Source of the DNA: Eledone cirrhosa
Taxonomy: Eukaryota
Reading direction: 5' to 3'
NCBI GenBank assembly: GCA_964016885.1
Contig: OZ024753.1
Coordinates: 13,888,001-13,952,000 of the forward strand
DNA length: 64,000 nt
The position numbers were made by a program, and so were the translations under genes. Shown in pieces: positions 11,530-49,058 of the stretch. The notes beneath the pieces were generated by a model, which was not told where the DNA came from, made no database searches, and worked only from the letters and a program-made list of their open reading frames with translations. Each line of letters opens with the position of its first letter. Position 1 is the stretch's first letter.

Positions 11530-12240
11530 TAATTTACAGCATGTACTGGGTGCATTTTATCATGGCACCAGCACTACCACTTTACAGAGTGTACTGGGTG
11601 CATTTTATCATGGCACCAACACTACCACTTTACAGCATGTACTGGGTGCATTTTATCATGGCACCAGCACTACCACTTTACAGAGTGTACTGGGTGCATT
11701 TTATTATGGCACCAACACTACCACTTTACAGCATGTACTGGGTGCATTTTATCATGGTACAAGCACTACCATTTTACAGCATGTACTGGGTGCATTTTAT
11801 CATGGTACAAGCACTACCATTTTACAGCATGTACTGGGTGCATTTTATCATGGTACTAGCGCTACCACTTTATAGTGTTTACTGACTGTATGTATTTTAT
11901 AGTGGCACCAGCACTACCACTTTAGAGAGTGTACTGGGTGCATTATATAGTGGCTCAAGCTCTACTACTTTACAGAGTGTACTGGGTATATTTTATAGTG
12001 GCACCAGCATTACTATACAGATTGTATTAGGTGTATTTTATTGTGGCACCAGCACTACCACTTTACAGAGTGTACTGGATGTATTTCATCATGGCACCAG
12101 TACTAACACTTTACAGAGTGTACTGGGTGTTTTTTTTATAGAGGTTCAAGCACTACTTTACAGTGTGTTCTGTGTGTATAAGCACTCCCACTTTACAGAG
12201 TGTACTGGGTGCATTTTATCATAGCAGCAGCCACTTTACC
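11530..12240 (-). repeat. 48-bp tandem array from an RTE-type 3'UTR module
   Basis: tgtactgggtgcattttatcatggcaccagcactaccactttacag; degenerates towards the right end. Confidence 0.8.
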
Positions 12241-12334
12241 AAAAGATGCAACTTATACTTCACAAAATTAAGAGGGGAGGAGCTGGTAGTGCCTCAAAAG
12301 TATTTCTCTTACATCTTTAATATTTATTTTTCAG

Positions 12335-15300
12335 CTTTCTGGATGTCGGACATCATGAAGAAGTCAATATCTACTCAGATGAACAAAAGTGAGAAGTGTA
12401 GCCTACATAAGTCTTTCAGTGAACCCTCAAGTATGTCATCAAAAGCATTGAATGGAAATAAATTAGCTCAAGCACCCCCACACAATTCAACGAACACGAT
12501 CCCTGTTGGTAGCACTGGTATTGTTAGACATGCCTCTAATCATAAAAACAAACCTTTAACAAACTACAAAAGCAAATCTAATTCTTGTAAGACAGGAAGT
12601 TGCTCTAAGTCGAAGTCAAAGACATCGTGTTCAGATTCACATTTAGTCACTTCCTGTGTGTCTAAGACAAACCATCATCATCATCATCATCAGCATTCTG
12701 ATGAAAGTAGAGAAAGCAGTGTTGTTAATATGAAAGTTCACCGTTCCCATACACATCCACAGATTAATAGTTTAGATTTACCACGGACAGCCATTCACTC
12801 GTCCCCTTCCAAAGAGCATCTTGCACTCCCCCAGTATTTTCACAGTAACTTGTCTGATAAACTTAGTGATTATGAAGATGTTTGGAAAAACTGTCCGTCG
12901 GTTAAAAGTGCGGACATTCAGAGTGGTAAAATGTTTAGTGATTCTGAAGCAGAGAATAACTGCACGCTGTACATGCCTAACAAAAATGAACGCTTAGTTG
13001 TGAGTCCAATAAGCTGCATCAGCTCTGAAATAGAAACAGGAGACTTGTATATAAAATCTGGACATGATATATGTTTGAAAGAAGAAAAGGAAATCGAGGA
13101 TTTGTATAGTAAATCCTCTCACGACAAATGTTTCAAACAACAAAAGGCAATTGAGGATTTATATAGTAAATCAGCTCATGATATTTGTTTTAAGTTAAAG
13201 AAAGCTTCCAGTCCTGATAAATGTGAAAATCCTGCAACAGACCAGGAGAAACACAGTGCTGTAACATGGCCATCTCAATCTACTTCATCTTGTCATGCTG
13301 ATGGTCGCATGGCTCGACGCGGCTCTACCGGCCAAACTGTACAACACAATAAACATAATTCAGAAACACAAACTTGCCAAAAAGATGTTGAGTTACAGAG
13401 GAGAATCTCCTTACAAGAAGAAATAAGACCTCAGAAAACAAAGGTACCCGAGGGCAGTAAAGATATCACTGATTCTATGACCTCTTGTGAGAAGAAAGTT
13501 GAACCAATGAACAAACCCCCCGAAAAGACAAAGCCCCCTCCTTTACATAGTGTGGCATATGTTCAGAAATCTTCTGATGGAAAGACAAAAAGCCCTGTAT
13601 ATACTGAGCCTTTTGACTCACTAGGAGTGAACTCAGTTATATTTCCGCCTGTAAGCTCTGCTAACAGACAAGTTTATGGACAGAAATCAACAGCACACAA
13701 TTGTCATGAGCGACGTAAGAATCGCATCTCTCACCAACCCACCTTAGAAACTATTTATTCACCTTCTATAACACCAAATGCCACCATATTTTCTTTTGAT
13801 AAATACAAAATAAGGAATGGTAAAAGCTCCAGTGATATGAACAATAATGCTAAGCAAAGTCTACAGAAACAGTGTTTTTATAGTCAGAGTGAAAACCACC
13901 AAAAAACAGACAAAATTGAGCTGAAATACAGCGATAAGGGGGCCTTAAGTAATGCATGTGCTACAGTTGCAGATAACATTCTTCTAACAATGAAGATGCA
14001 TGAAAGTAAGTCAAAGACTCAGACGTTGCAGAAATTCCCTGTGAATCAAAAAAACCCAGCAAAAGAAAGTGAGTTGGATGTTGTGACATTAGAGGATATG
14101 ATAGCTCCTCAGTTGACTTTAAAACCAATGGAACAACCAAACCTAATAATTTCATCAAAGACATCAGAATATGATAATTTGAATCAATATCGTGCTGTAT
14201 CTGTAGTCAGTGATGCCGGTACTGTTTTCTCTAAACCGTGGGACAGTGAAAAATGGGACAACATTCTGAAATGTGAAGACCTTAAGGCATTGCCATCGGC
14301 TAACCCATTTGAACGAATTCAAGAATGGCAAGCATTGAGTCAGAACTATGCTCAAAAGGGGAAAGATTCTAGTAATTTTCAGAACAGACATAGCACAGCC
14401 TCAAGTGGTTCACAAGTAGAGAGTGGACCTCTGCCAGACTCAGTAAAGGCTCAAATGCTTGAACGCAAAGTATTGAAGGAAATTATTGCCAAATCAGAAG
14501 ATAAAGAGAAATTACCATTGTTATCATCATCAAGCGAATCTTTTGAGAAACATATTGAATTAACCCTTAACAAAAGTCCTGGTATGAACCTTAAAGAATA
14601 TGTTCTGCATTTAGCAAGTAGTCCTGAGACATTTGGCCTTCAGATCCAACATTTTTTAGAATGTACTAGAGAAAGTCAAGAGAGCAATCCCCGCTGTGTG
14701 ATGAGCAATGTTAGACAGTTTATGACTGGGATGAAAAACTATCTGTTTCATAACAATCAAAAAGGTCTAAATACTCTGATTAAGAGAGAATCTAGTCGAC
14801 TTGGTGCCAATGAGATTCTCAACATTGACGCCATTATTGAAAGTTCTCTTCACGAAAGTGTCATTCTGCCTTTAAAGAAACACATTTATCAACTGCTTGC
14901 TGCTGACTACACCAAAAATGGAAGTGTGGAAACGTTGTATAAAAATATTGTCTATGCTCGTACACGACCTCTTAGTGACCTTGGTCTTCGAGGTCACTTA
15001 ACTCCTCCAGACAAAGAAGAGCTACAGTTAATAAGACATCATCTGATACAAATTAAAGAATCGTACTCTCCAGTGAAAAAGTTAGAAAACCTCATGGCTG
15101 CCGCGTATTGTATCACAGGCTGTTTAAATAGTCAATGTCCAGAAGGTCGAGGCAGTAGTTCAGTACAAACAGATGACTTCCTTCCAATGTTAACCTATGT
15201 AATAGTTGATGTAGGCCTTGTTACAGCCGAGATAGAAGCTGATTATATGTGGGGGTTACTCCACAGTTCACAGGTGACAGCTGAAGCCAGTTATTACCTG

Positions 15301-15711
15301 TCAACTCTCAGTAGTGCTGTTCTATTACTTAAGATATTCAAAGAAACCCACCAAAGTAATTTTTCAAATGGCCACCAGGGCCGTCTGCCAAGTATCAGTG
15401 ATATGCAAGGCTTTCTGAAGGTAGCATTTCCTGATGAGTTTCGAGACAGCATTATTTGGAAAACTCTGCCCATTAGACCAAACATGACCACAAAAGATGT
15501 TTGTGCTATGATTGCTCACAGGTTCCGAATCACCAATCCACAAGACTATGGATTATTTATTTTAGTAAATGGACAAGAAAACTTCCTAGCTGAAACCACA
15601 TGTCCACAGAATATAAAGATGGAAAATGTTGATGCCAAGAAGGAATGTATATTTGCCTACAAGCGAATAGCTGCCAATATAGCTTGGCCCCACCAACTTC
15701 AAACTAGCTGA
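12335..15711 (+). CDS. RIN/sprint-like Ras and Rab interactor, terminal exon (low-complexity linker, helical bundle, VPS9 GEF, RA domain)
   Basis: ttttcag|CT TTC TGG. Motifs VRQFMTGMKNYL, SPVKKLENL, TDDFLPMLTYVI, EASYYLSTL (VPS9) and KTLPIRPNMTTKDVCAMIAHRFRITNPQDYGLF (RA). The ORF-track start at 12163 is intronic. Confidence 0.92.
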
Positions 15712-18282: not shown

Positions 18283-18606
18283 ATTGGGGAAAACCACAGT
18301 AAGTAAGGTACTCAATACATAGCAGAGTATAAATATTTAATATAGAAATGGCTTCTACAGGACTAGAACTGTTTCATTCGAAGGAAATCATCAGGAAAGC
18401 CCTTTCCTGATTATTTCCTTTGAATGAAACAGTTCTAGACCTGTAGAAGCCATTTCTATATTATATATATATATAAGGAATCATAAATATATATATATAA
18501 GGAAATCATCAGGAAAGGGCTTTCCTGATGATTTCCTTCGAATGAAACAGTTCTAGACCTGTAGAAGCCATTTCTATATTAGATATATATATATATATAA
18601 GGAATC

Positions 18607-18637
<31 letters not shown>

Positions 18638-18717
18638 AGGAAATCATCAGGAACAGGCTTTCCTGATGATTTCCTTCGAAGGAAACAGTTCTAGTCCTGT
18701 ATAAGCCATTTCTATAT

Positions 18718-18762
<45 letters not shown>

Positions 18763-18905
18763 AAATCATCAGAAAAGCGCTTTCCTGATGATTTCCTTTG
18801 AATGAAACACTTCTAGTCCTGTAGAAGCCATTACTATATTAAATATTTATACTCTGCTATGTATTGGGTACTTCACTTACTGTGGTTACCCCTGATTGAA
18901 CCTGG
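18283..18905. mobile_element. Fold-back / tandem non-autonomous Penelope-like element with five hammerhead motifs
   Basis: ggctttc-CTGATGA-tttccttcgaat-GAAA-cag-ttctagtc-ctg-TA-gaagcc at 18350-18401 (-), 18402-18451 (+, core mutated), 18518-18569, 18656-18707 and ~18779-18829 (+). The outer arms are inverted. Confidence 0.7.
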
Positions 18906-21204: not shown

Positions 21205-24200
21205 TATCATCATCATCATCATCATCACCGTTTTACGTCCGTTCTTCCACGCTAGCATGGGTTAGACGGGTTGTCCTGTTGTGGGCAGTGTCTGGTCGGC
21301 TGACCATGCCTTGCTCATACAGGAACTGATCTGGCTTGATTTCTACAGCTGGATGCCCTTCCTAACACCAACCTCATTTACAGTGAGTGCTGGGTGCTTT
21401 TTCGTGGCGCCTACACGTCCACTTTACAGTGTGGGCTGGGTGCTTTTTTGCCGTGGCACCTCCACGACCACCTTGCGGGGGGGGGGGGCATATTTATATG
21501 CTTCAGCATGTACCCATGGGAGGTCGGGTACCCTGTATTACTGCGTGACGCCAGAAGTCACGGTCGTGTGTCATTGACTTTGAGAGGTGTAGTTGGGTAA
21601 GGTCGGCTTTTATCACCTCATCCCAAGTCATCTTGGGTCTCCCCACTCCGCGGTTTCCATCAACTTCTAGTGCTCTGCACCTTTTTATGCAGCTGTCATC
21701 CTTCATACGCATCACATGTCCATACCAGCGTAACCGCCTCTCCTGCACGCAGCATTTGATTCCTCTTATGCTCAGTCTCTCTCTCAATTCATTTATGCTT
21801 TGTCGTTCACGTATATTACTGTTACACATCCATCGGAGCATGCAGGCTTCGTTTCTCTCTAATCTACGTAAGTCTTCCACCTTCAGCGCCCAGGTCTCAC
21901 TACCATGCAACATCGCTGTTCGGATACACGCATCATACAGTCTGCCTTTCATTCTGAGGGAGAAGCCTTTTGCAGCTAGCAGTGGTAGTAGTTCCCTAAA
22001 CTTCTTCCATCCCGTTCTTACCCTAGTTATTGTACTTTCTGAGCACCCACCTCCGTTGCTAATTCGGTCACCTAGGTAGCAGAAGCTGTCTACTGTTTCT
22101 ACAGGGCCCTCCCAGAGATTGGTGGTACTTGTTTCCTGTGGCTGTTTGCTTGCTGTTTCAGCACAGCTGCTGCATGTGAATCCTACATTCTTAATTAAGC
22201 TTCCTGAGATCCCGCTACATCTCTTGTGTACCCATTGTTTGCATTTGGGGCAAAGAATGGAGTTCCTACCTACACCTTTCCTACATACTGAGCAAGGCCA
22301 TTTCCCTGAGGGGATCTGGGTTCTGTTTTCTCGTCTACTTATAAGGACCTTAGTCTTTGTCATGTTGACTTTGAGGCCCTTTCTCTCTAGTCCCTGCTTC
22401 CAGGTTTGGAATTTATTCTCTAGTTCTACCATAGATTCAGCTATGAGTGCGAGGTCATCAGCATACAGGAGTTCCCATGGGCATCCGGTCTTAAACTCCT
22501 CCGTTATTGCCTGCAGGACTATGATGAACAGGAGAGGGCTAAGAACAGAGCCCTGGTGGACCCCAACCTGTACGCTAAATTCCTCGCTATACTCATTGCC
22601 AATCCTAACTTTGCTGACTGCTCCCCTATACATGGCTTGTACCGCTTTCACAAGCCATTCATCTACTCCTAGTTTTCTAAGAGCCCACCAGATTACTGCA
22701 CGTGGAACTCTGTCAAAGGCTTTCTCAAGGTCGACAAATGCCAAGTAGAGTGGCTTACTTTTAGCTAGGTACTTTTCCTGTAATTGCCTCACAAGGAAGA
22801 GCGCATCAGTGGTGCCTTTCCCTGGAACAAACCCAAATTGCATCTCGTCTATATTCACCCGGTCCCTAATCAGCTGTGCTATAACTCTTTCTGTTACTTT
22901 CATGACCTGGTCCATCAACTTTATACCTCTATAGTTTCCTCTATCTAGTGCATCGCCTTTACCTTTGTAGCAGTTGACAATGATGCTACTGCACCAATCT
23001 TTTGGTATGGCCCCCTCTAGTATTACCTGGTTAACGATACGTGTGGTTATAGTGTGACCTACAGACCCAGATGCCTTCAGCATCTCGGCAGCTATACCCG
23101 ATGGACCGGTTGCCTTCCCTATCTTCATATCTCTGATTGCCTTACTTACTACGCTGCCGCTGACTTGTACTGCTGGTCCCTCTATAGGGTCTACGTGGGG
23201 TAGGGTCTCTTCTTCCCATGCATTCTCCTCATTTAGTAATCTATCATAATGACTCTTCCATGCATCCTTCTTCTCAGCACTTGTGAGGGCAAGCTCACCT
23301 TTATCATTCCGGATACACTTCTCTCCAATGACATCACAACTATCTCTGACACACTGCCTCGCAATCTTGAATACCTCCTGTTTCTGGTCCTCACGTTGTA
23401 AAACATGCTTGAATTTTCTATCCTCTGCTTCCCTCCTAGCTAAGTATACTTGTCGCCTAGCTTCCCTCTTGGTCTCTATGTAATGTACCCTGCTCCCCCC
23501 GTTCTTCCATTCTTTCCATGCCTGTCTCTTGGCCTTGACTGCTTCATCTACCTTATTGTTCCACCACCAAGTCACTCTCCTCCTGCTTGAGGTCTTACTC
23601 CAGCCACAAACCTCATCCGTCGCCTCTAGTAAGTTATTTTTTAGGAACTCCCAGTTCTCTTCTACGTTAAATGTCTCTATCTGTTCTTCTTTACTGTCGT
23701 AGGCGTTGAGTAAAATATCTTTAAATCTGTTACTGGTTGAGGGGACTTTCAGCTTCCAGATCTTTCTTCTCCAGGTTGGCCTCTGTTTCAGGGCTCGTCT
23801 AGTTCTGACCGTGAGGTCGCTGACAACTAAGCTATGTTGGGATGTACATTCCTCACTAGGGAAGGCTTTTGTGTTTACGACCGTCCATCTGTCACGTCCT
23901 CTGATGAGAATAAAATCTAACTGACTAGAGTGCTCCCCTGATCTATAGGTGATCAGGTGGTTGTCGGGTTTTTTAAAGTTTGTGTTACATATCGACATGT
24001 CATTGGCGTCGCAGAATTCTAGAAGTCTGAATCCTTCCTCATTCCTTGTGCCAACTCCATGGCCTCCATGTACTCTATTGAAGCCGTCGCAGTGTTTACC
24101 TACGTGTCCGTTAAAATCTCCTGCAATGATTAGGAAGTCCTTGTCGTCTGTTAGAGCAGTAGTGTGTATTAGGGACTCGTAAAACCTATCCTTAAGTTCG

Positions 24201-25527
24201 TCTGGCAGCCCCGATTGGGGTGCGTAAGCTGATATTATTGTGGTAATTGTCTTATTCAGGACTAGTCTGAGTTTAATGATTCTTGCATTTACCCTGTACA
24301 CTGAGATTACTTTATCTACCCACTTGTCAGCTAATAGTATACCTACACCACCCATCCCATCGTCATTTCCCACCCAGAAAAATTTGTAGCACTGGCTTTT
24401 TCCTACAAGGACTCTAGCAGACCCTCCTCTCCATCTAGTCTCTTGCACACAGCATACATCAACTTCCTTTCGCTCTAGCATTTCTACGATTTCTCCTGCT
24501 CTTCCTTTCATTGAGCCTACATTGATGGTACCAACTCGGAGTTTTGGGCATTTGTCGACACTCGTAGGGGAGGGTCTCTGGGTTGGCGCTTCACGTGGGT
24601 GCTTGGTAGCTCGCAGATTCATATTTCATCTATTGATTCAGAGTTGCTCGTGTATTCCCAGCTCATCCATCCATAACGGTGGGAAAATTGAGGGCTAGAA
24701 GGACAGTGGTGGTGGGGTAATGGCAGGGTGTGTTGGGATGCGCCAGAGGAGGAGAGAGTTAGTTAGGCAGGTAGTAGCAGCAGCAGCAGTGGAAATGGCA
24801 TGCTAGGTTTGATTGGTCGAATAGACTATGGTGGTGTGTGGGGGTGGGGGGGAGGGAAATTGTGAGGTAGGAACTGAGGGTCGCATGGTAAATATCCAAG
24901 TTAATACTACATCAGTAAAATTAACAATAATAACGTCATGAAAAAAGCTACTAAGAGAAACCCTCGAAAATTTATCGCTAATACAGCAGGGAAAATTTAA
25001 CGCTAATACAGCAGGGAACATCATAATATTAACGACATGAAAAAGCTACTAAGAGAAACCCTCGAAAATTTATCGCTAATACAGCAGGGAAAATTTAACG
25101 CTAATACAGCAGGGAACATCATAATATTAACGACAATATGTAGGCTAAAATACCTTCGTAGATTAGGTGGATGGCTGGCTGGGAAAATTTGAATCAGCTC
25201 TACTGGTACATTTTAGCAGAGAAGAATGGCAAAGTGTCTTATCTCTTCAATATTTTCAGATTGAATGAATTAGGTTAAAGACAGGGTAGTAAGCCTTAAA
25301 GAAGTGCATAGAGGGGGGGGGGGGGTAGGAACTGAGGGTCGCATGGTAAATAACTGAGAGAGATACAATAGGATTAGAATACCGCATGGTAAATATCCAA
25401 GTTAATAAGTTAATACTACATCAGTAAAATTAACAATAATAACGTCATGAAAAAAGCTACTAAGAGAAACCCTCGAAAATTTATCGCTAATACAGCAGGG
25501 AAAATTTAACGCTAATACAGCAGGGAA
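21205..25527 (-). mobile_element. Probably full-length RTE-clade LINE (family A)
   Basis: (GAT)n tail at ~21205, ~300-nt 3'UTR, intact ORF and an upstream region with internal repeats to ~25527. The 5' limit is uncertain and no TSD was found. Confidence 0.8.
21503..24622 (-). CDS. RTE LINE ORF: APE endonuclease + reverse transcriptase + PHD-type zinc finger (1039 aa, uninterrupted)
   Basis: GTINVG, CVQETR, AGDFNGH and LDFIL (APE); NYRGIKL, DLEKAFDRV, GVHQGSVLSP and LLYADD (RT); C4HC3 motif; RRLRWYGHV and GRPK.TW C-terminal motifs. Confidence 0.95.
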   Translation of the reverse strand: MNLRATKHPREAPTQRPSPTSVDKCPKLRVGTINVGSMKGRAGEIVEMLERKEVDVCCVQETRWRGGSARVLVGKSQCYKFFWVGNDDGMGGVGILLADKWVDKVISVYRVNARIIKLRLVLNKTITTIISAYAPQSGLPDELKDRFYESLIHTTALTDDKDFLIIAGDFNGHVGKHCDGFNRVHGGHGVGTRNEEGFRLLEFCDANDMSICNTNFKKPDNHLITYRSGEHSSQLDFILIRGRDRWTVVNTKAFPSEECTSQHSLVVSDLTVRTRRALKQRPTWRRKIWKLKVPSTSNRFKDILLNAYDSKEEQIETFNVEENWEFLKNNLLEATDEVCGWSKTSSRRRVTWWWNNKVDEAVKAKRQAWKEWKNGGSRVHYIETKREARRQVYLARREAEDRKFKHVLQREDQKQEVFKIARQCVRDSCDVIGEKCIRNDKGELALTSAEKKDAWKSHYDRLLNEENAWEEETLPHVDPIEGPAVQVSGSVVSKAIRDMKIGKATGPSGIAAEMLKASGSVGHTITTRIVNQVILEGAIPKDWCSSIIVNCYKGKGDALDRGNYRGIKLMDQVMKVTERVIAQLIRDRVNIDEMQFGFVPGKGTTDALFLVRQLQEKYLAKSKPLYLAFVDLEKAFDRVPRAVIWWALRKLGVDEWLVKAVQAMYRGAVSKVRIGNEYSEEFSVQVGVHQGSVLSPLLFIIVLQAITEEFKTGCPWELLYADDLALIAESMVELENKFQTWKQGLERKGLKVNMTKTKVLISRRENRTQIPSGKWPCSVCRKGVGRNSILCPKCKQWVHKRCSGISGSLIKNVGFTCSSCAETASKQPQETSTTNLWEGPVETVDSFCYLGDRISNGGGCSESTITRVRTGWKKFRELLPLLAAKGFSLRMKGRLYDACIRTAMLHGSETWALKVEDLRRLERNEACMLRWMCNSNIRERQSINELRERLSIRGIKCCVQERRLRWYGHVMRMKDDSCIKRCRALEVDGNRGVGRPKMTWDEVIKADLTQLHLSKSMTHDRDFWRHAVIQGTRPPMGTC

Positions 25528-36424: not shown

Positions 36425-39240
36425 TCATCATCATCATCATCATCATCGTTTAACGTCCATATTCCACGCTTGCATGGGTTTGGACGGGAGTTTTCCCACT
36501 TGAGGCAAGAGTGGTTGTCTTGCTCGCATAGGACTGTCTGGCGGGTTTTCTACGGCTGGATGCCCTTCCTAACACCAACCACATTTACAGTGTGGACTGG
36601 GAGGTTTTTACCGTGTTACCTACACGGCCACATTACAGCGTGGACTGTGTGTTTTTTTGTCGTGACACCTACACGATCTCATTTGTTTCGGGCTGGATGT
36701 TGTGGTACCAACATAACTTTACATTGAAAGGGGTGGTGTGGATGGGGTGGGGGTAGTGGGACGGGGGTGTATTTTATTAGAGGTGCCTACTGACTGTAGT
36801 AGGTTTCACTTTGCACTTAGGTAAGGCGGGTCTTCTCTATTACTGTGTAGCGCCAAAGATCTCAGTCCAGTGACATTGTCTTGGAGAGGTGTAAGTGTGT
36901 GAGGTCGGAATTTATCAAGTCGTCCCAGGTTATTCTGGGTCTGCCTACTCCGTGGCTACCGTCTATTTTTATTGCCCTGCACTTTTTTATACAGCTGTCG
37001 TCTTTCATGCACATCACGTGACCATACCAACGTAGTCTTCTCTCGAGTAAACAACATCTGATCCCTCTTATTCCTAATTTCTCCCTTAGTTCGTTTATGC
37101 TTTGCCATTCACGTATATTACTATTACACATCCAGCGGAGCATGCAAGCTTCGTTTCTCTCCAGTCTGCGTATATCCTCTGCACACAATGCCCAGGTCTC
37201 ACTGCCATGTAACATTGCTGTTCGTATGCAGGCATCATACAGCCTGCCTTTCATATTTAGAGAGAATCCTTTAGCGGCCAATAGTGGTATAAGCTCTCTG
37301 AACTTTTTCCATCCCGTTCTGACTCTAGCTACTGTACTTTCAGAGCACCCTCCCCCACTGCTGATTTTGTCACCCAGATAACGGAAGCTGTCCACTATTT
37401 CTATAGAACCATCTGTGCAATGGAATGAGTTAGTATTCTGTGGACACTTGCTGCTACTTATTGCACCAGAGCACCGGCCACATATAAAATCTACGTTCTT
37501 AGATAGCTTACCTGTGATCCCACTACATCTTTTATGTACCCATACTTTGCATTTGGGACATAAAATGGAGTTTCTACCTACTTCTTTCCTACACACTGAG
37601 CATGGCCATTTCCCAGATGGGACCGGTGCCCTATTTTCCTTCCCACAAACTAGAACTTTAGTCTTAGACAAGTTAACTTTAAGGCCTTTTGATTCTAGGC
37701 CATGCTTCCATGTTTGAAATTTCTTCTCTAGTTCAGCCATTGATTCAGCTATGAGCGTTAGATCATCTGCATATAGGAGTTCCCATGGGCAGCCAGTCTT
37801 GAACTCCTCTGTTATAGCCTGAAGGGCAATAATAAATAGTAGGGGGCTAAGGACGGAGCCCTGATGAACACCAACTTTTACGCTAAACTCTTCACTATAT
37901 TCGTTGTTAATTCTAACCTTGCTGACTGTTTCTTTATACATGGGTTGTATAGCTCTCACAAGCCATTCATCAAGACCTAGTTTTCTAAGGGCCCACCAGA
38001 TAATCGAGCGGGGTACTCTGTCAAAGGCTTTCTCCAAGTCAACAAAAGCTAAGTATAGGGGTTTACTTTTAGCTAGGTACTTCTCCTGTAGTTGTCGTAC
38101 AATGAAAAGAGCGTCTGTTGTACTTTTACCTGACACAAACCCGAACTGCATTTCGTCTAGATCAATTCGCTCTCTGATTAGTTGTGCTATTACTTTTTCT
38201 GTGACCTTCATGACCTGGTCAATTAATTTAATGCCTCCATAGTTTCCCCTATCTAGGGCATCACCTTTACCCTTGTAGCAGTTAATGATGATGCTGCTGC
38301 GCCAGTCCTTCGGAACGACCCCATTCTGTATGAGTTGGTTTACTATCCGGGTGACCATAGTGTGTTTCACCGTTCCAGATGCTTTCAGCATTTCAGCAAC
38401 TATTTCCGAAGGCCCGGCCGCCTTGCCCGTCTTCATGTTTTTGATTGCCTTACTTATTATACTACCTTCAACTAGCACTGCTGGTCCCTCTATTGGGTCG
38501 ATGTGGGGGAGACTGTCTTTCTCCCAATTATTCTCCTCATTTAGTAGCCTTTCGTAGTGACACTTCCAAGCTACCTTCTTATCAGCGTCAGTGATGGCAA
38601 GTACACCATTATCAGTAAGGACACACTTCTCCCCGACAATATCACTGTTTTCCTTGACACATTGCCTAGCAATCCTGAACACCTCACGTTTTTGGTCCTC
38701 GCTTTGTAGAACATGCTTGAACTTTCTTTCCTCTGCTTCCCTTCTTGTGAAGTACACTTGTCTCCTAGCTTCCCTCCTGGTCACTTGATAGTCTTCTCTA
38801 CTTCCCCCATCCCGCCATGCTTTCCAAGCCTGCTTTTTGGCCTTGATTGACCTCTCCACCTTACTGTTCCACCACCATGTTACTCTCCTCCTGCCTATAG
38901 GCCTGCTCCAGCCACAGGTTTCATCTGTCGCCTTCAACAAGTTAGCTTTCAGGAATTCCCACTGTTCCTCTATATTGTACGACTCTAATTGCTCTTCCTT
39001 ACTATCAAAAGCATCAAGTAATATGCTTTTAAATTTATTACTGGCTGTGGGGTCCTTTAATTTCCATATTTTTCTCCTGAGGATAGTCCTCTTCTGTTGT
39101 CGAATACATCTCGTCCTGACTATGAGGTCGCTAATTATGAGTCTATGTTGAGAGGTGCATTCTTCATGGGGGAGGGATTTAGTGTTTACAACAGACACTC
39201 TGTCACATCTTCTGGTAAGGATATAATCTACCTGGCTTGT
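36425..39240 (-). mobile_element. 5'-truncated RTE LINE (family B): end of APE, complete RT, PHD finger, 3'UTR
   Basis: Open from SQVDYIL through YADD to KTMSLD. Premature TGA at 36862 (CGA in the 2414 copy); natural stop ~36817. The ORF-track N-terminus beyond 39240 is read-through of unrelated repeats. Confidence 0.92.
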
Positions 39241-39292
39241 GTGTATGTATATATATATGAGTGTGTGTATGTATATAGATATATATATATAT

Positions 39293-39438
39293 GTGGTTGG
39301 TGTTAGGAAGGGCATCCAGCTGTAGAAAACCCGCCAGACAGTTCTATGCGAGCAAGACAACCACTCTTGCCTCAAGTGGGAAAACTCCCGTCCAAACCCA
39401 TGCAAGCGTGGAACATGGACGTTAAACGATGATGATGA

Positions 39439-39442
<4 letters not shown>
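39293..39442 (+). mobile_element. RTE family B terminal fragment, inverted relative to the adjacent element
   Basis: ttaggaagggcatcc...gacgttaaac(gat)n. Confidence 0.8.
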
Positions 39443-39482
<40 letters not shown>

Positions 39483-40089
39483 ATGTATATATATATATAT
39501 ATATATATGAGTGTGTGTATGTATATATATATATATATATGCAATGAGGTAAATAGGGTTTAGAATCAAATATATAAAGACCACAATATAAATAGCTAGC
39601 AAACACAATGCTTTGAACGTGTGTGATTTCAGTAAAGATATCATTTCACTTAATCTCATATAATTATAAAAAATATTTCAGGAACTTGAAAAATATCGTG
39701 TCTTTTATTTTCAAGCTTTCAGTGTGTTGGCCTTCTTCAATACTTGTAATCTGATGCATTTCGAAAACCAGAGAGACGAGCTGTATTTGTTTAAGTGTTT
39801 GCTAGTCGTTCGAGAAGCTAAAGCTGACAAGCTAGATAAAGTCCTGATAAGTTGTGTAATCGATGTTAGGTAATCAGATAATATTCATTCAGATGATACA
39901 CACAGTATATACATGCATATACATATATATATGTATTTGCATGTGTACACATGCATATACATATATATATGCATATATGTATATGCATATATATTCATGT
40001 ATATACATATATATATGCATATGTATGTGTATATATATATACGTATATATATATATATACATATACATGCATATATACACATATATGGG

Positions 40090-45860: not shown

Positions 45861-46269
45861 GTCTAACTTCACCCCTTCTCCCTTCAAATTTCTAACCTTC
45901 TGCCTATGTTATAAATTATTATCATGTAAGAATACAATGTATGTCCATACTGCAGGGGGAAGGGGGTCCCTCCTGTCTCTTAAAAGCCCCCCCCCCCCCA
46001 ATAAAAAAAAACACTTACAAACAAAAAATAGTACAATTACTATTAAGGAACGACTGTTTTGTGTTGAGCTGGGGCTAAACGAAAACAACAACAACAATAA
46101 CTACAGTAACAACAACAACTAGGGTAACAACAACAACAATAACTACAGTAACAACAATAACTACGGTAACAGCAACAACAACAATAAAAAAAGCGATCAG
46201 TTTAGCCAATATGAATTATTATGATTTATTATATTATTGAAGTATTTATTCTTTCTCTGACTAGTTACT

Positions 46270-46323
<54 letters not shown>

Positions 46324-46586
46324 GGAAAAAATGAAACGATATTTCATTTCCCACTCTTAGTACGGCTGTTACTTAAATATAAGTATGTACACGTACATAC
46401 ATATATGTATACCGACGTACAGTAGTATGTATATATATATATACATACATGCACACATATATATATGCACGTATGGATTCACCGAACATTTATTATAATG
46501 CTCGGTGTGTTTGTAAACAAACATCCCGTATTAAGCCGTAGTGTCTAGCAACCACCGTTGCTCGTTTGTTCAACACTGACAAAGGA

Positions 46587-46629
46587 ACGCTGTACTAGTT
46601 TCAAGCTTGTTAGCTATCGTCAGCAACGT
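46587..46629 (-). ncRNA. Type I hammerhead ribozyme (copy 1)
   Basis: Reverse complement of 47236-47278. Confidence 0.75.
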
Positions 46630-47008
46630 ATACCTTCCTGCCAGATTGTTGAACGTATATACTTACCTTATGCATATTAACGGCTGAGTAGCCCAATATG
46701 CATATCGAGTGGGTTAATCGGCCGGGTGCACCGAAAACGATAAACGGAAAAAATGAAACGATATTTCATTTCCCACTCTTAGTACGGCTGTTACTTAAAT
46801 ATAAGTATGTACACGTACATACATATATGTATACCGACGTACAGTAGTATGTATATATATATATACATACATGCACACATATATATATGCACGTATGGAT
46901 TCACCGAACATTTATTATAATGCTCGGTGTGTTTGTAAACAAACATCCCGTATTAAGCCGTAGTGTCTAGCAACCACCGTTGCTCGTTTGTTCAACACTG
47001 ACAAAGGA

Positions 47009-47051
47009 ACGCTGTACTAGTTTCAAGCTTGTTAGCTATCGTCAGCAACGT
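47009..47051 (-). ncRNA. Type I hammerhead ribozyme (copy 2)
   Basis: Reverse complement of 47236-47278. Confidence 0.75.
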
Positions 47052-47235
47052 ATACCTTCCTGCCAGATTGTTGAACGTATATACTTACCTTATGCATATT
47101 AACGGCTGAGTAGCCCAATATGCATATCGAGTGGGTTAATCGGCCGGTTAACCCACTCGATATGCATATTGGGCTACTCAGCCGTTAATATGCATAAGGT
47201 AAGTATATACGTTCAACAATCTGGCAGGAAGGTAT

Positions 47236-47278
47236 ACGTTGCTGACGATAGCTAACAAGCTTGAAACTAGTACAGCGT
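47236..47278 (+). ncRNA. Type I hammerhead ribozyme (copy 3)
   Basis: acgttg-CTGACGA-t-agct-aaca-agct-t-GAAA-ctag-TA-cagcgt; predicted cleavage after GUA at 47272. Confidence 0.78.
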
Positions 47279-47657
47279 TCCTTTGTCAGTGTTGAACAAA
47301 CGAGCAACGGTGGTTGCTAGACACTACGGCTTAATACGGGATGTTTGTTTACAAACACACCGAGCATTATAATAAATGTTCGGTGAATCCATACGTGCAT
47401 ATATATATGTGTGCATGTATGTATATATATATATACATACTACTGTACGTCGGTATACATATATGTATGTACGTGTACATACTTATATTTAAGTAACAGC
47501 CGTACTAAGAGTGGGAAATGAAATATCGTTTCATTTTTTCCGTTTATCGTTTTCGGTGCACCCGGCCGATTAACCCACTCGATATGCATATTGGGCTACT
47601 CAGCCGTTAATATGCATAAGGTAAGTATATACGTTCAACAATCTGGCAGGAAGGTAT

Positions 47658-47700
47658 ACGTTGCTGACGATAGCTAACAAGCTTGAAACTAGTACAGCGT
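47658..47700 (+). ncRNA. Type I hammerhead ribozyme (copy 4)
   Basis: Identical motif 422 nt downstream of copy 3. Confidence 0.78.
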
Positions 47701-47903
47701 TCCTTTGTCAGTGTTGAACAAACGAGCAACGGTGGTTGCTAGACACTACGGCTTAATACGGGATGTTTGTTTACAAACACACCGAGCATTATAATAAATG
47801 TTCGGTGAATCCATACGTGCATATATATATGTGTGCATGTATGTATATATATATATACATACTACTGTACGTCGGTATACATATATGTATGTACGTGTAC
47901 ATA

Positions 47904-47951
<48 letters not shown>

Positions 47952-47952
<1 letters not shown>

Positions 47953-48139
47953 CGAATGAAAAGTGGTAAGGAACCAGGTGGACCATAACGCACCAAAGTA
48001 CTCAATACTTAGGGTAGTAGAGTGGGTAATAGGAGTAAGTAAGACCCCGACGGTTGAGCTCAAGCCGTTTCGACGGCTAATTCAGTACAGAATTAGCCGT
48101 CGAAACGGCTTGAGCTCAGCCGTCGGGGTCTTACTTACT

Positions 48140-48144
<5 letters not shown>
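47952..48144. mobile_element. Small fold-back element carrying hammerhead 3' halves
   Basis: Near-perfect palindrome 48029-48144 containing GAAA-cggc..gccg-TC on each strand; flanked by (TA)n. Confidence 0.55.
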
Positions 48145-48178
<34 letters not shown>

Positions 48179-48222
48179 AAGTTAAATAAAAGTCAAATGA
48201 TTAAAATTTAGCTTCGTTTATT

Positions 48223-48277
48223 ACTGCTATATATATTTCAGTGACAGCCATCTTTGGCTGTGACCTCTTCAGGCAGT
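48223..48277 (-). ncRNA. Minimal type I hammerhead motif
   Basis: actgc-CTGAAGA-ggtcacagcc-aaagat-ggctgtcact-GAAA-tatata-TA-gcagt. Confidence 0.72.
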
Positions 48278-48681
48278 TTGAATTAGTATGGTATAGACAA
48301 GTACATATGTTGTTTAGGTGTATAATATTGTCAATACTCTGATATGCCCAGTTCCTTGTTGGGTTGTTAATTCACCAGAGTGCTCCAGCCTGCATACTGA
48401 GGTGTTGGTATACAACCAACATAAACTCAAAATCTATATATATATATATATATCGTTTCTGAATTTGTTTAGCAAGATTCTTTATCTGAAAACGTGTGTT
48501 GAAACCGATATTGTTATACTTTGGGAGGGTCATGTTGCCAATAAGAAACACACGCACCAGTTGCTTTCACTCCAATTTATTATAAATTGAATTATAAATT
48601 ATAAATTTAAGAATTTATAAATTTCCGGTTGGTTGGCTGGTTGGTTGTTTGGTTCCACAACCGGATGGTTGTTCATATATT

Positions 48682-48724
48682 GTCAAAGTTCTTTCGTCAC
48701 ACATTCCGTGACCTCTTCAGTGAC
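48682..48724 (-). ncRNA. Minimal type I hammerhead motif
   Basis: gtca-CTGAAGA-g-gtcac-ggaatgt-gtgac-GAAA-gaac-TT-tgac. Confidence 0.62.
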
Positions 48725-48783
48725 TGGGATTCTTCTCTTTGTTTTGTGCCTCTCCTTTGTTCTGTCCTACGCCATCTTGTTTT

Positions 48784-48818
<35 letters not shown>

Positions 48819-48907
48819 GTATGTATATATATATATATGTATGTATATATATATAAATGAAAATAGAGAAATTAATGTGAGCAAGAAGCCAACAGTAATT
48901 CATACAT

Positions 48908-48909
<2 letters not shown>

Positions 48910-48950
<41 letters not shown>

Positions 48951-49058
48951 AAATGACGTAATTCCGTCGGAAAAGTCCAGGAAAAAAGAGTGCTCTATGT
49001 AGGTAACAGAGCTTAATAGTTATGTAATAAACATAATTGCCTTATGTTGTTTATTACA

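Follow-up and report, generated by a model that had tools for sequence, protein, structure and literature searches.

Metazoan non-LTR retrozymes are dispersed, multicopy and non-coding elements of low GC content, built of tandem units of 150–450 bp (PMC7229834; bioRxiv 10.64898/2026.07.22.740005). Each unit carries one canonical type I hammerhead ribozyme with a short palindromic helix III; the copies range from dimers to long multimers, the monomer is highly self-paired, and the elements co-occur with Penelope-like elements (PLEs). These retrozymes and their circles are established (PMC7229834; PMC7761336), and in animals linear and circular monomers and multimers have been described (PMC7229834). 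A PLE origin has been argued from co-occurrence and pLTR homology in the main text of bioRxiv 10.64898/2026.07.22.740005, which leaves the mode of mobilization open. PLE insertions themselves show a head-to-head inverted arm and a one-sided tail, of 30–40 nt according to the accessible texts (PMC8557442, PMC3846280, PMC11167929); two internal reverse transcriptase (RT) start sites bound this tail and a hammerhead lies upstream of the starts. The Hydra clade of PLEs targets (TA)n (PMC8557442). For an Anolis PLE protein, it has been reported that both target strands are cut and extended, that two internal starts bound the tail and that the enzyme is predicted to be a dimer (PMC11167929).

The locus described here shares the non-coding tandem unit, the canonical hammerhead and the co-occurrence with PLEs of retrozymes, and the head-to-head arm, one-sided tail, two internal start sites and (TA)n target of PLEs. 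It lies in a stretch of 64 000 nt from Eledone cirrhosa, all of which was analysed (the window). It very likely belongs, as a copy of very recent origin, to a large superfamily of retrozymes, a class already known; expression, cleavage and circles were shown for published members (PMC7229834), whereas our own reading is drawn from sequence. Of its record of a two-armed insertion with two start sites we found no earlier description. We think it probable, on balance, that the locus is a recent non-LTR retrozyme insertion made with a borrowed PLE enzyme, both cut (TA)n ends having primed on a likely circular RNA.

A period of 422 bp with 100% matches spans 46318–47147 (Tandem Repeats Finder), and a repeat search of the window returned inverted arms of 770 nt (46374–47143 and 47144–47913). 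Compared base by base, the two arms differ solely at 47140 (T) and 47147 (G), and the units inside each arm are otherwise identical. An earlier note on this DNA had described the unit as present about twice on the minus strand and about 1.8 times on the plus strand between (TA)n flanks, in agreement with the 1.97 and 1.81 units measured. It had also taken all copies to be identical and to diverge from 47143/47144: the axis is correct, and the copies are identical but for the one T/G mismatch. Measured from this axis, the left arm reaches 59 nt beyond the right, and the palindrome is asymmetric, with an unpaired tail (Table 1). In a unit numbering that starts at the cleavage site, the outer ends correspond to position 275 (site A) and position 216 (site B); the last nucleotides of site B, about five, are common to the element and its TA target. 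A GAGUGGG/CCCACUC helix is predicted to close the region around site A, with pair probabilities of 0.98–1.0 in six of its seven pairs, and an alignment judged by eye shows matching changes in homologous families. No target-site duplication is readable within the microsatellite of the right-hand remnant. As expected of retrozymes, intact hammerheads occur in at least two consecutive units and the GC content (0.36 across 46001–48000) is below 45–50%. The circular 422-nt monomer is predicted to fold with a z-score of −8.1 against 60 dinucleotide shuffles. We found no Pol III A or B box in the unit, no ORF of at least 180 aa over the element, and no RT plus GIY-YIG ORF either inside the element or in the stretches enclosed by those paired ends that we inspected, save in unrelated nested elements.

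Table 1. Features of the two-armed element and its flanks (positions in the window).
Feature	Position	Strand	Remark
Arm A, 830 nt, 1.97 units	46318..47147	-	ribozyme-sense strand runs outward from centre; outer end is site A joined to (TA)n
Arm B, 763 nt, 1.81 units	47148..47910	+	outer end is fixed site B
59-nt tail between sites B and A, at one end only, with hairpin	46318..46376	-	
Central head-to-head junction at the unit's own CGGCCG palindrome, one T/G mismatch	47140..47147	.	base-by-base comparison
Left (TA)n target remnant, preceded by (CA)n	46292..46317	.	
Right (TA)n target remnant	47911..47951	.	
Predicted 422-nt monomer between two cut sites	47273..47694	+	release and circularization putative
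Identical predicted 422-nt monomer	47014-46593	-	
Type I hammerhead 1, extended stem I	47211..47297	+	core 47242-47272; predicted cut 47272/47273
Type I hammerhead 2	47633..47719	+	core 47664-47694; predicted cut 47694/47695
Type I hammerhead 3	46990..47076	-	core 47045-47015; predicted cut 47015/47014
Type I hammerhead 4	46568..46654	-	core 46623-46593; predicted cut 46593/46592

The full hammerhead core reported earlier for each unit was located four times at the locus, twice per arm, and GAAACTAGTA ends at 47272 and 47694, with a spacing of 422 nt. CUGANGA, GAAA and NUH follow one another in the order of a three-way junction, with the predicted cut in an open stem I. Helix I has 6 bp and is predicted to extend via internal loops to about 28 bp, as the earlier note had recognized in describing a stem I that reaches well beyond the core. 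Helix II is predicted to have 4 bp, with a U·U mismatch at its base instead of the usual G–C, and helix III has 2 bp inside the palindrome ACUAGU, the self-duplex of which is worth −6.8 kcal/mol. Pair probabilities in the extended stem I and stem II are mostly 0.7–1.0, with three weaker pairs at 0.26–0.59. The canonical metazoan type I hammerhead, as described in PMC4209133, has about 6 bp in helix I, about 4 bp in helix II and 1–2 bp with a palindromic loop in helix III, and works better as a dimer, whereas the minimal PLE-type form lacks helix III and has 7–8 bp in helix II and 4–5 bp in helix I (PMC4209133). Since the helix sizes here (6, 4 and 2 bp) are canonical, the label ‘minimal’ attached to this ribozyme earlier is wrong, and we class it as a canonical metazoan type I hammerhead and a putative self-cleaver. 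The G10.1–C11.1 pair is replaced by U·U in the 422-bp family; it is G–C in families D and E and C–G in one copy of family F. A U·U at the base of helix II is also reported for HHR_Amex2, an active axolotl ribozyme that has weak activity as a monomer and performs better when dimeric (PMC7229834). Among 12 representative sequences the core is invariant, N7 and H varying as allowed. In 12 related sequences, seven of the 15 helix pairs are changed on both sides, with compensatory changes in helices I and II, and the covariation score is 0.41, compared with 0.02–0.13 in slid controls. The resulting evidence for helix covariation across families is strong, albeit with no formal probability attached owing to the kinship of the sequences. 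A search with Rfam, a check that the earlier note had proposed, detected no hammerhead family: Rfam 15 gave no match in the window at gathering thresholds, and at E ≤ 10 its 131 matches in 46200–48300 were only TA-rich miRNA-like noise.

Genome-wide counts were made in the 3.0-Gb assembly, each pattern with a control. The 31-nt core with two free positions has 24 157 exact occurrences (control 0), and a further 11 364 cores are related to it but differ in stem II (control 29); the latter belong to homologous tandem families, about 60–77% alike, with units of about 430, 466–469 and 490–500 nt. Searching with the unit, we obtained at least 255 matches; these stem from only 40 of 247 candidates, lie on nine or more contigs and are mostly 99–100% identical, so the family is indeed multicopy and very recent, as had been proposed. 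Most of the 25 other loci among the matches listed share the two-armed layout, with the ribozyme-sense strands outward and ends A and B in (TA)n; the exceptions are four single-armed loci and one interrupted by N. The junction of site A with TA occurs exactly 3652 times in the genome and that of site B 4137 times, with controls of 0. Young arrays on many chromosomes are 99–100% identical, count 2–16 units and have intact A and B ends. At C1:5738326–5752444 (L185–L186), an arm of the 466-nt family reaches 31 units and 14 kb, opposite a partner arm of less than one unit; this 31-unit array is a mosaic. Sequence look-alikes of the unit proved to be unrelated TA-rich repeats and were discarded. 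In two runs labelled as other organisms (X4 and X6), we came across contigs 99–100% identical to parts of the unit, tandem junction included, for which close relatives, mixed samples or recent transfer would be indistinguishable causes.

The two-armed palindrome is the normal layout of this family, and it joins one A end to one B end. For an unbiased test of pairing we took all listed exact-pattern ends in C1:1–74.8 Mb (74 A and 100 B): divergent neighbours within 3 kb are A+B in 19 of 19 cases, with no AA or BB pair, and those within 12 kb in 23 of 23. The A and B sites lie at homologous positions in the homologous retrozyme families, and the same pairing is kept in two Hydra-clade autonomous families (10/10 and 4/4), in a third PLE family (4/4) and in the family of a short element beside the locus (22/22 clean pairs). 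Pooled over all loci examined, divergent A+B pairs number 57 for retrozymes and 22, 10, 4 and 4 for the other families, plus one cross-family pair; four further pooled pairs, with TA in between, were read as separate neighbours. Long A–B pairs contain arrays or nested elements between their ends, and no helper. One locus, L032, breaks the rule: the end patterns missed its two outer ends, which are both A-type, and its arms belong to different subfamilies. At L032:2719–5800, just before the central junction, the template switches in register, the young family giving way to a 77%-identical subfamily. Finally, kilobase TA tracts with regularly spaced interruptions stand at the expected place of the missing arm at L033:2225–3305 and L040:2300–3000; they could possibly stem from reiterative synthesis by a telomerase-related RT.

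The central junctions vary between loci and are mostly asymmetric. We analysed 22 young junctions, after dropping three rows (two mis-parsed in L032 and one older copy). Among the 15 without an insert, 13 overlap by 1–10 nt and two are blunt, the mean overlap being 2.5 compared with 0.76 in the null. Inserts of 2–10 nt are present in seven of the 22, and four of them copy adjacent sequence. We take these overlaps and locally copied inserts to resemble polymerase-theta joining. Sequence changes are concentrated in the two innermost units, with 18 in 20 units versus 3 in 46 (ten arms of at least four units; arms of L043, L044, L046 and L049 left out).

Long near-perfect palindromes are a familiar artefact of long reads, and the inversion could in principle come from a chimeric read or from misassembly. 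We give this practically no credence: ends offset by 59 nt recur at dozens of loci of varied ages and in other families, and one contig of run X4, from an independent study, carries an opposite-strand joint in the 422-bp unit. The same layout with fixed offset ends at so many loci shows the palindrome to be biology rather than assembly. Another possibility, raised in the earlier note as a fold-back, is that a single cDNA turned back at the palindrome and copied itself to 59 nt from its start; self-priming is likewise the published reading of the PLE inversion, palindromic junctions having been so taken in rotifer Penelopes (PMC3846280). The window locus fits this exactly, its junction being on the palindrome and its lengths obeying 830 = 763 + 59 + 8; the strict A+B rule would follow without added assumptions; the short neighbouring family is mostly symmetric; and a rare variant is common to both arms of L043, just as subfamily variants are usually common to both arms of an insertion. 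Arm lengths argue otherwise. We collected 45 pairs in 65 stretches, all of them A+B (a count of cases that are not independent because L211–L227 entered the set as AB pairs and segmental duplicates occur among the loci), and kept 38 clean ones after dropping seven with nested or overlapping matches or gaps of at least 45 nt. In 19 of the 38, arm B is longer by more than 30 nt than arm A less the 59-nt tail, up to threefold or more (for example, 7019 versus 2337 nt and 6863 versus 2421 nt), and self-copying would require whole-unit deletions in half of the loci; near-symmetric junctions number 9 of 38. The lengths of the two arms correlate positively (Spearman 0.59, over pooled young and old copies, a pooling that may or may not explain it). 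Moreover, arms of different origin would be impossible for a cDNA that copies itself: in L046 arm A is of one variant throughout and 13 arm-B units are of another (N7 and TA-tract variants), in L032 the two arms are two subfamilies, and in L070 no TA separates a retrozyme A arm from the 5′-truncated copy of Hydra family Q that it joins, with a 3-nt overlap seen by eye, and the end of this copy is the B site of Q. Even at the window junction, pairing of two cDNA ends is favoured at −10.6 kcal/mol over the same 8 nt folded as a hairpin, at +3.5 kcal/mol. Since arm B is too long at half of the loci and arms of different variants occur, fold-back is not the general mechanism; as a rule it is largely refuted and we hold it to be distinctly unlikely, but it may apply to the window locus itself, the arm lengths of which fit it exactly. 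Our data favour two primed cDNAs instead, and we regard two-ended priming as quite likely.

That the template was a circular RNA seems to us nearly as likely, judging from the make-up of the arrays. Single-variant arrays of 12–16 units are present, L215 contains a repeated unit pair with members that differ at 13 places, and older arrays alternate, with lag-2 or lag-4 similarity (p < 0.05) in six of 13 arrays, three of the 13 having been picked as visibly periodic and several lags tried. The alternating arrays fit, and suggest, rolling on monomer, dimer and tetramer circles, although duplication at the DNA level can mimic them; the circular template put forward earlier is thus plausible, unit arrays and periodicity being consistent with it. 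The two ends might instead have primed on a linear multimeric read-through RNA, the ribozyme being a passenger and a circle unneeded. Source arrays of up to 31 units would be enough for 16-unit arms, and in vitro, PLE insertion was not lowered by ribozyme mutations, with uncleaved RNA reported as the main substrate (PMC11167929). However, the ABAB and four-unit patterns would need to be inherited from earlier DNA duplications, as would the long arrays of one rare variant (L043 and L046), and compensatory ribozyme changes across families about 60–77% alike would imply selection for cleavage; we consider a linear template doubtful. Growth of short insertions at a later stage, by unequal crossing-over or slippage as in satellite DNA, has been suggested for vertebrate retrozymes (bioRxiv 10.64898/2026.07.22.740005); it can yield higher-order periodicity, and the 31-unit array is a mosaic. 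It is highly improbable here: young arrays that are still 99–100% identical already have 2–16 units with intact ends, the errors in the two innermost units point to the insertion event, and the inverted second arm would go unexplained. We also considered that dimer circles might come from one dead ribozyme, an idea that was set aside as suggestive at most: a helix-breaking change is found in one alternating unit in L215, L187, L233 and L229, no such change is found in the alternating units of L231 and L241, and the chance expectation, by a rough hand estimate, is 2.8 of 6.

Release of the monomer would depend on where transcription starts. In a read-through transcript of the whole locus, 1530 of 1593 nt are predicted to be paired across the axis, both sense ribozymes being buried, whereas in a transcript of one arm alone the ribozymes are predicted to fold. 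Because the read-through duplex buries them, monomers would be released only from transcripts that start near the centre, and two-armed copies may be poor sources of monomers. Two runs that are possibly RNA cover only the TA-rich 47453–47490, which bears on expression neither way.

In the mechanism that we propose, array transcripts would self-cleave, probably as dimers that pair by their palindromic stem III, and monomers and small multimers would then be circularized by a ligase of the host. Both (TA)n strands would be cut by a Penelope-like protein with RT and GIY-YIG activities, which likely belongs to the Hydra clade. Site A would serve one DNA end as start of reverse transcription and site B, which lies 59 nt upstream, would serve the other, a few nucleotides of TA complementarity assisting at each. 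The number of turns that each RT makes round the circle would vary, with an occasional change of template, and the two cDNA 3′ ends would be joined head-to-head by microhomology, at CGGCCG in the window locus. The PLE RT is not known to have an RNase H. A wider proposal, to which we give even chances, is that two-ended priming is obligate in PLEs: a dimeric enzyme would use A for one target end and B for the other, tail and inversion would arise in a single event, and the retrozyme superfamily would record two independent rolling-circle arms, dimer and tetramer circles as periodic arrays, and a Hydra-clade helper. As counterpoints, of nine retrozyme dimers predicted in Xenopus only one underwent cleavage in vitro (bioRxiv 10.64898/2026.07.22.740005), the U·U base of helix II is a feature of an axolotl ribozyme with weak monomer activity (PMC7229834), and PLE insertion in vitro did not depend on ribozyme cleavage and had start sites that were alike on both strands (PMC11167929).

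The association with Penelope proposed in the earlier note is borne out by the insertion signature shared with PLE families (inverted arm, one-sided tail, AT-rich target) and by the L070 chimera with Hydra family Q. Vertebrate retrozymes have pLTR homology (bioRxiv 10.64898/2026.07.22.740005), whereas the present unit shows no similarity to the terminal repeats sampled from three autonomous families, of the L065, L073 and L067 types, where a first look gave 101 710 candidates and family Q was left out; the case for a partner therefore rests on one chimera. By eye, no further chimera of family-Q B ends and retrozyme A ends appears in the first 75 Mb of C1. The related-core pattern led to more retrozyme families, none with an attached ORF. 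A splice-donor-like GGTAAGT that the unit has in common with the L073 family was considered and rejected, older retrozyme families having GGAAAGT or AAAAAGC at that place. Pfam does not name the Hydra-type ORFs, and we assign them to the Hydra clade because they contain the motifs RW, DKT and CxCX5C, which PMC8557442 describes for it. Our confidence in the identity of the helper is low. The L065 family (L081–L110) is a young Hydra-clade PLE with many intact 821-aa ORFs at 96–99% identity; it carries a hammerhead, its two ends are offset by about 87 nt, and it is a candidate enzyme source. The terminal repeat of a further Hydra-type family (L193/L199–L210) is interrupted by an intron some 750 nt long; L199–L210 retain the intron and L193 looks like a precisely spliced copy.

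Set against described retrozymes, the present family differs in having two divergent arms and two fixed ends in (TA)n; the terms ‘inverted’ and ‘head-to-head’ are absent from the accessible text of PMC7229834, and the main text of bioRxiv 10.64898/2026.07.22.740005 has no such description. It differs from PLEs in having no ORF, a tail of 59 nt and, in both arms, multi-unit tandems of independent length. Another useful comparison is L1 retrotransposition. In L1 twin priming both target strands prime, and the inverted 5′ part is joined by microhomology. In the present family, priming is at two fixed, internal sites, with a poly(A) tail at neither, the first cDNA would run past the second primer, and the two-armed outcome is usual instead of being confined to a minority of events. 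Within a search that covered main texts and few subscription papers, we found no published account of a two-primer model with one A and one B end or of two-armed retrozyme insertions. The papers, in their accessible texts, leave two questions open: how retrozymes are mobilized in animals, and how inverted, tailed PLE insertions originate. On these the family offers footprints by the thousand in which the RNA start sites can be read exactly, together with the strict A+B rule, arm lengths at odds with simple fold-back and periodic arrays suggestive of circular templates. Two-ended copying of a circular RNA, if true, would explain a PLE signature that has long been puzzling, and the 422-nt unit as candidate substrate and the intact-ORF Hydra-clade proteins as candidate enzymes could be brought together in vitro.

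Several other elements lie in the window. Immediately downstream, 47952–48144 holds a different short element in (TA)n, also with a two-ended layout, in which no ribozyme was identified; its inverted arms measure 58 nt and its tail about 77 nt. Its family has many copies at other loci, mostly symmetric and some with a central A-run, as if both cDNAs had run off one RNA 5′ end. The minus strand at 48452–49050 and 48231–48272 carries the 3′ end of an autonomous-type PLE family (L067 type) with a 58-nt tail; this end has a hammerhead-like motif at 48720, and a further one lies at 48272. Hammerhead-like motifs of other families occur at 18381–18851 and 3676, those at 18.4–18.8 kb in a 122-bp tandem. 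On the minus strand, 21503–24625 and 36862–39645 each hold a non-LTR retrotransposon ORF that encodes RT and a PHD finger, to which the first adds an APE endonuclease. An uninterrupted 1189-aa frame at 12142–15711 (plus strand) has RIN1-like, VPS9 and RA domains and is, by its predicted domains, an intronless RIN-type Rab5 exchange-factor gene or a retrocopy.
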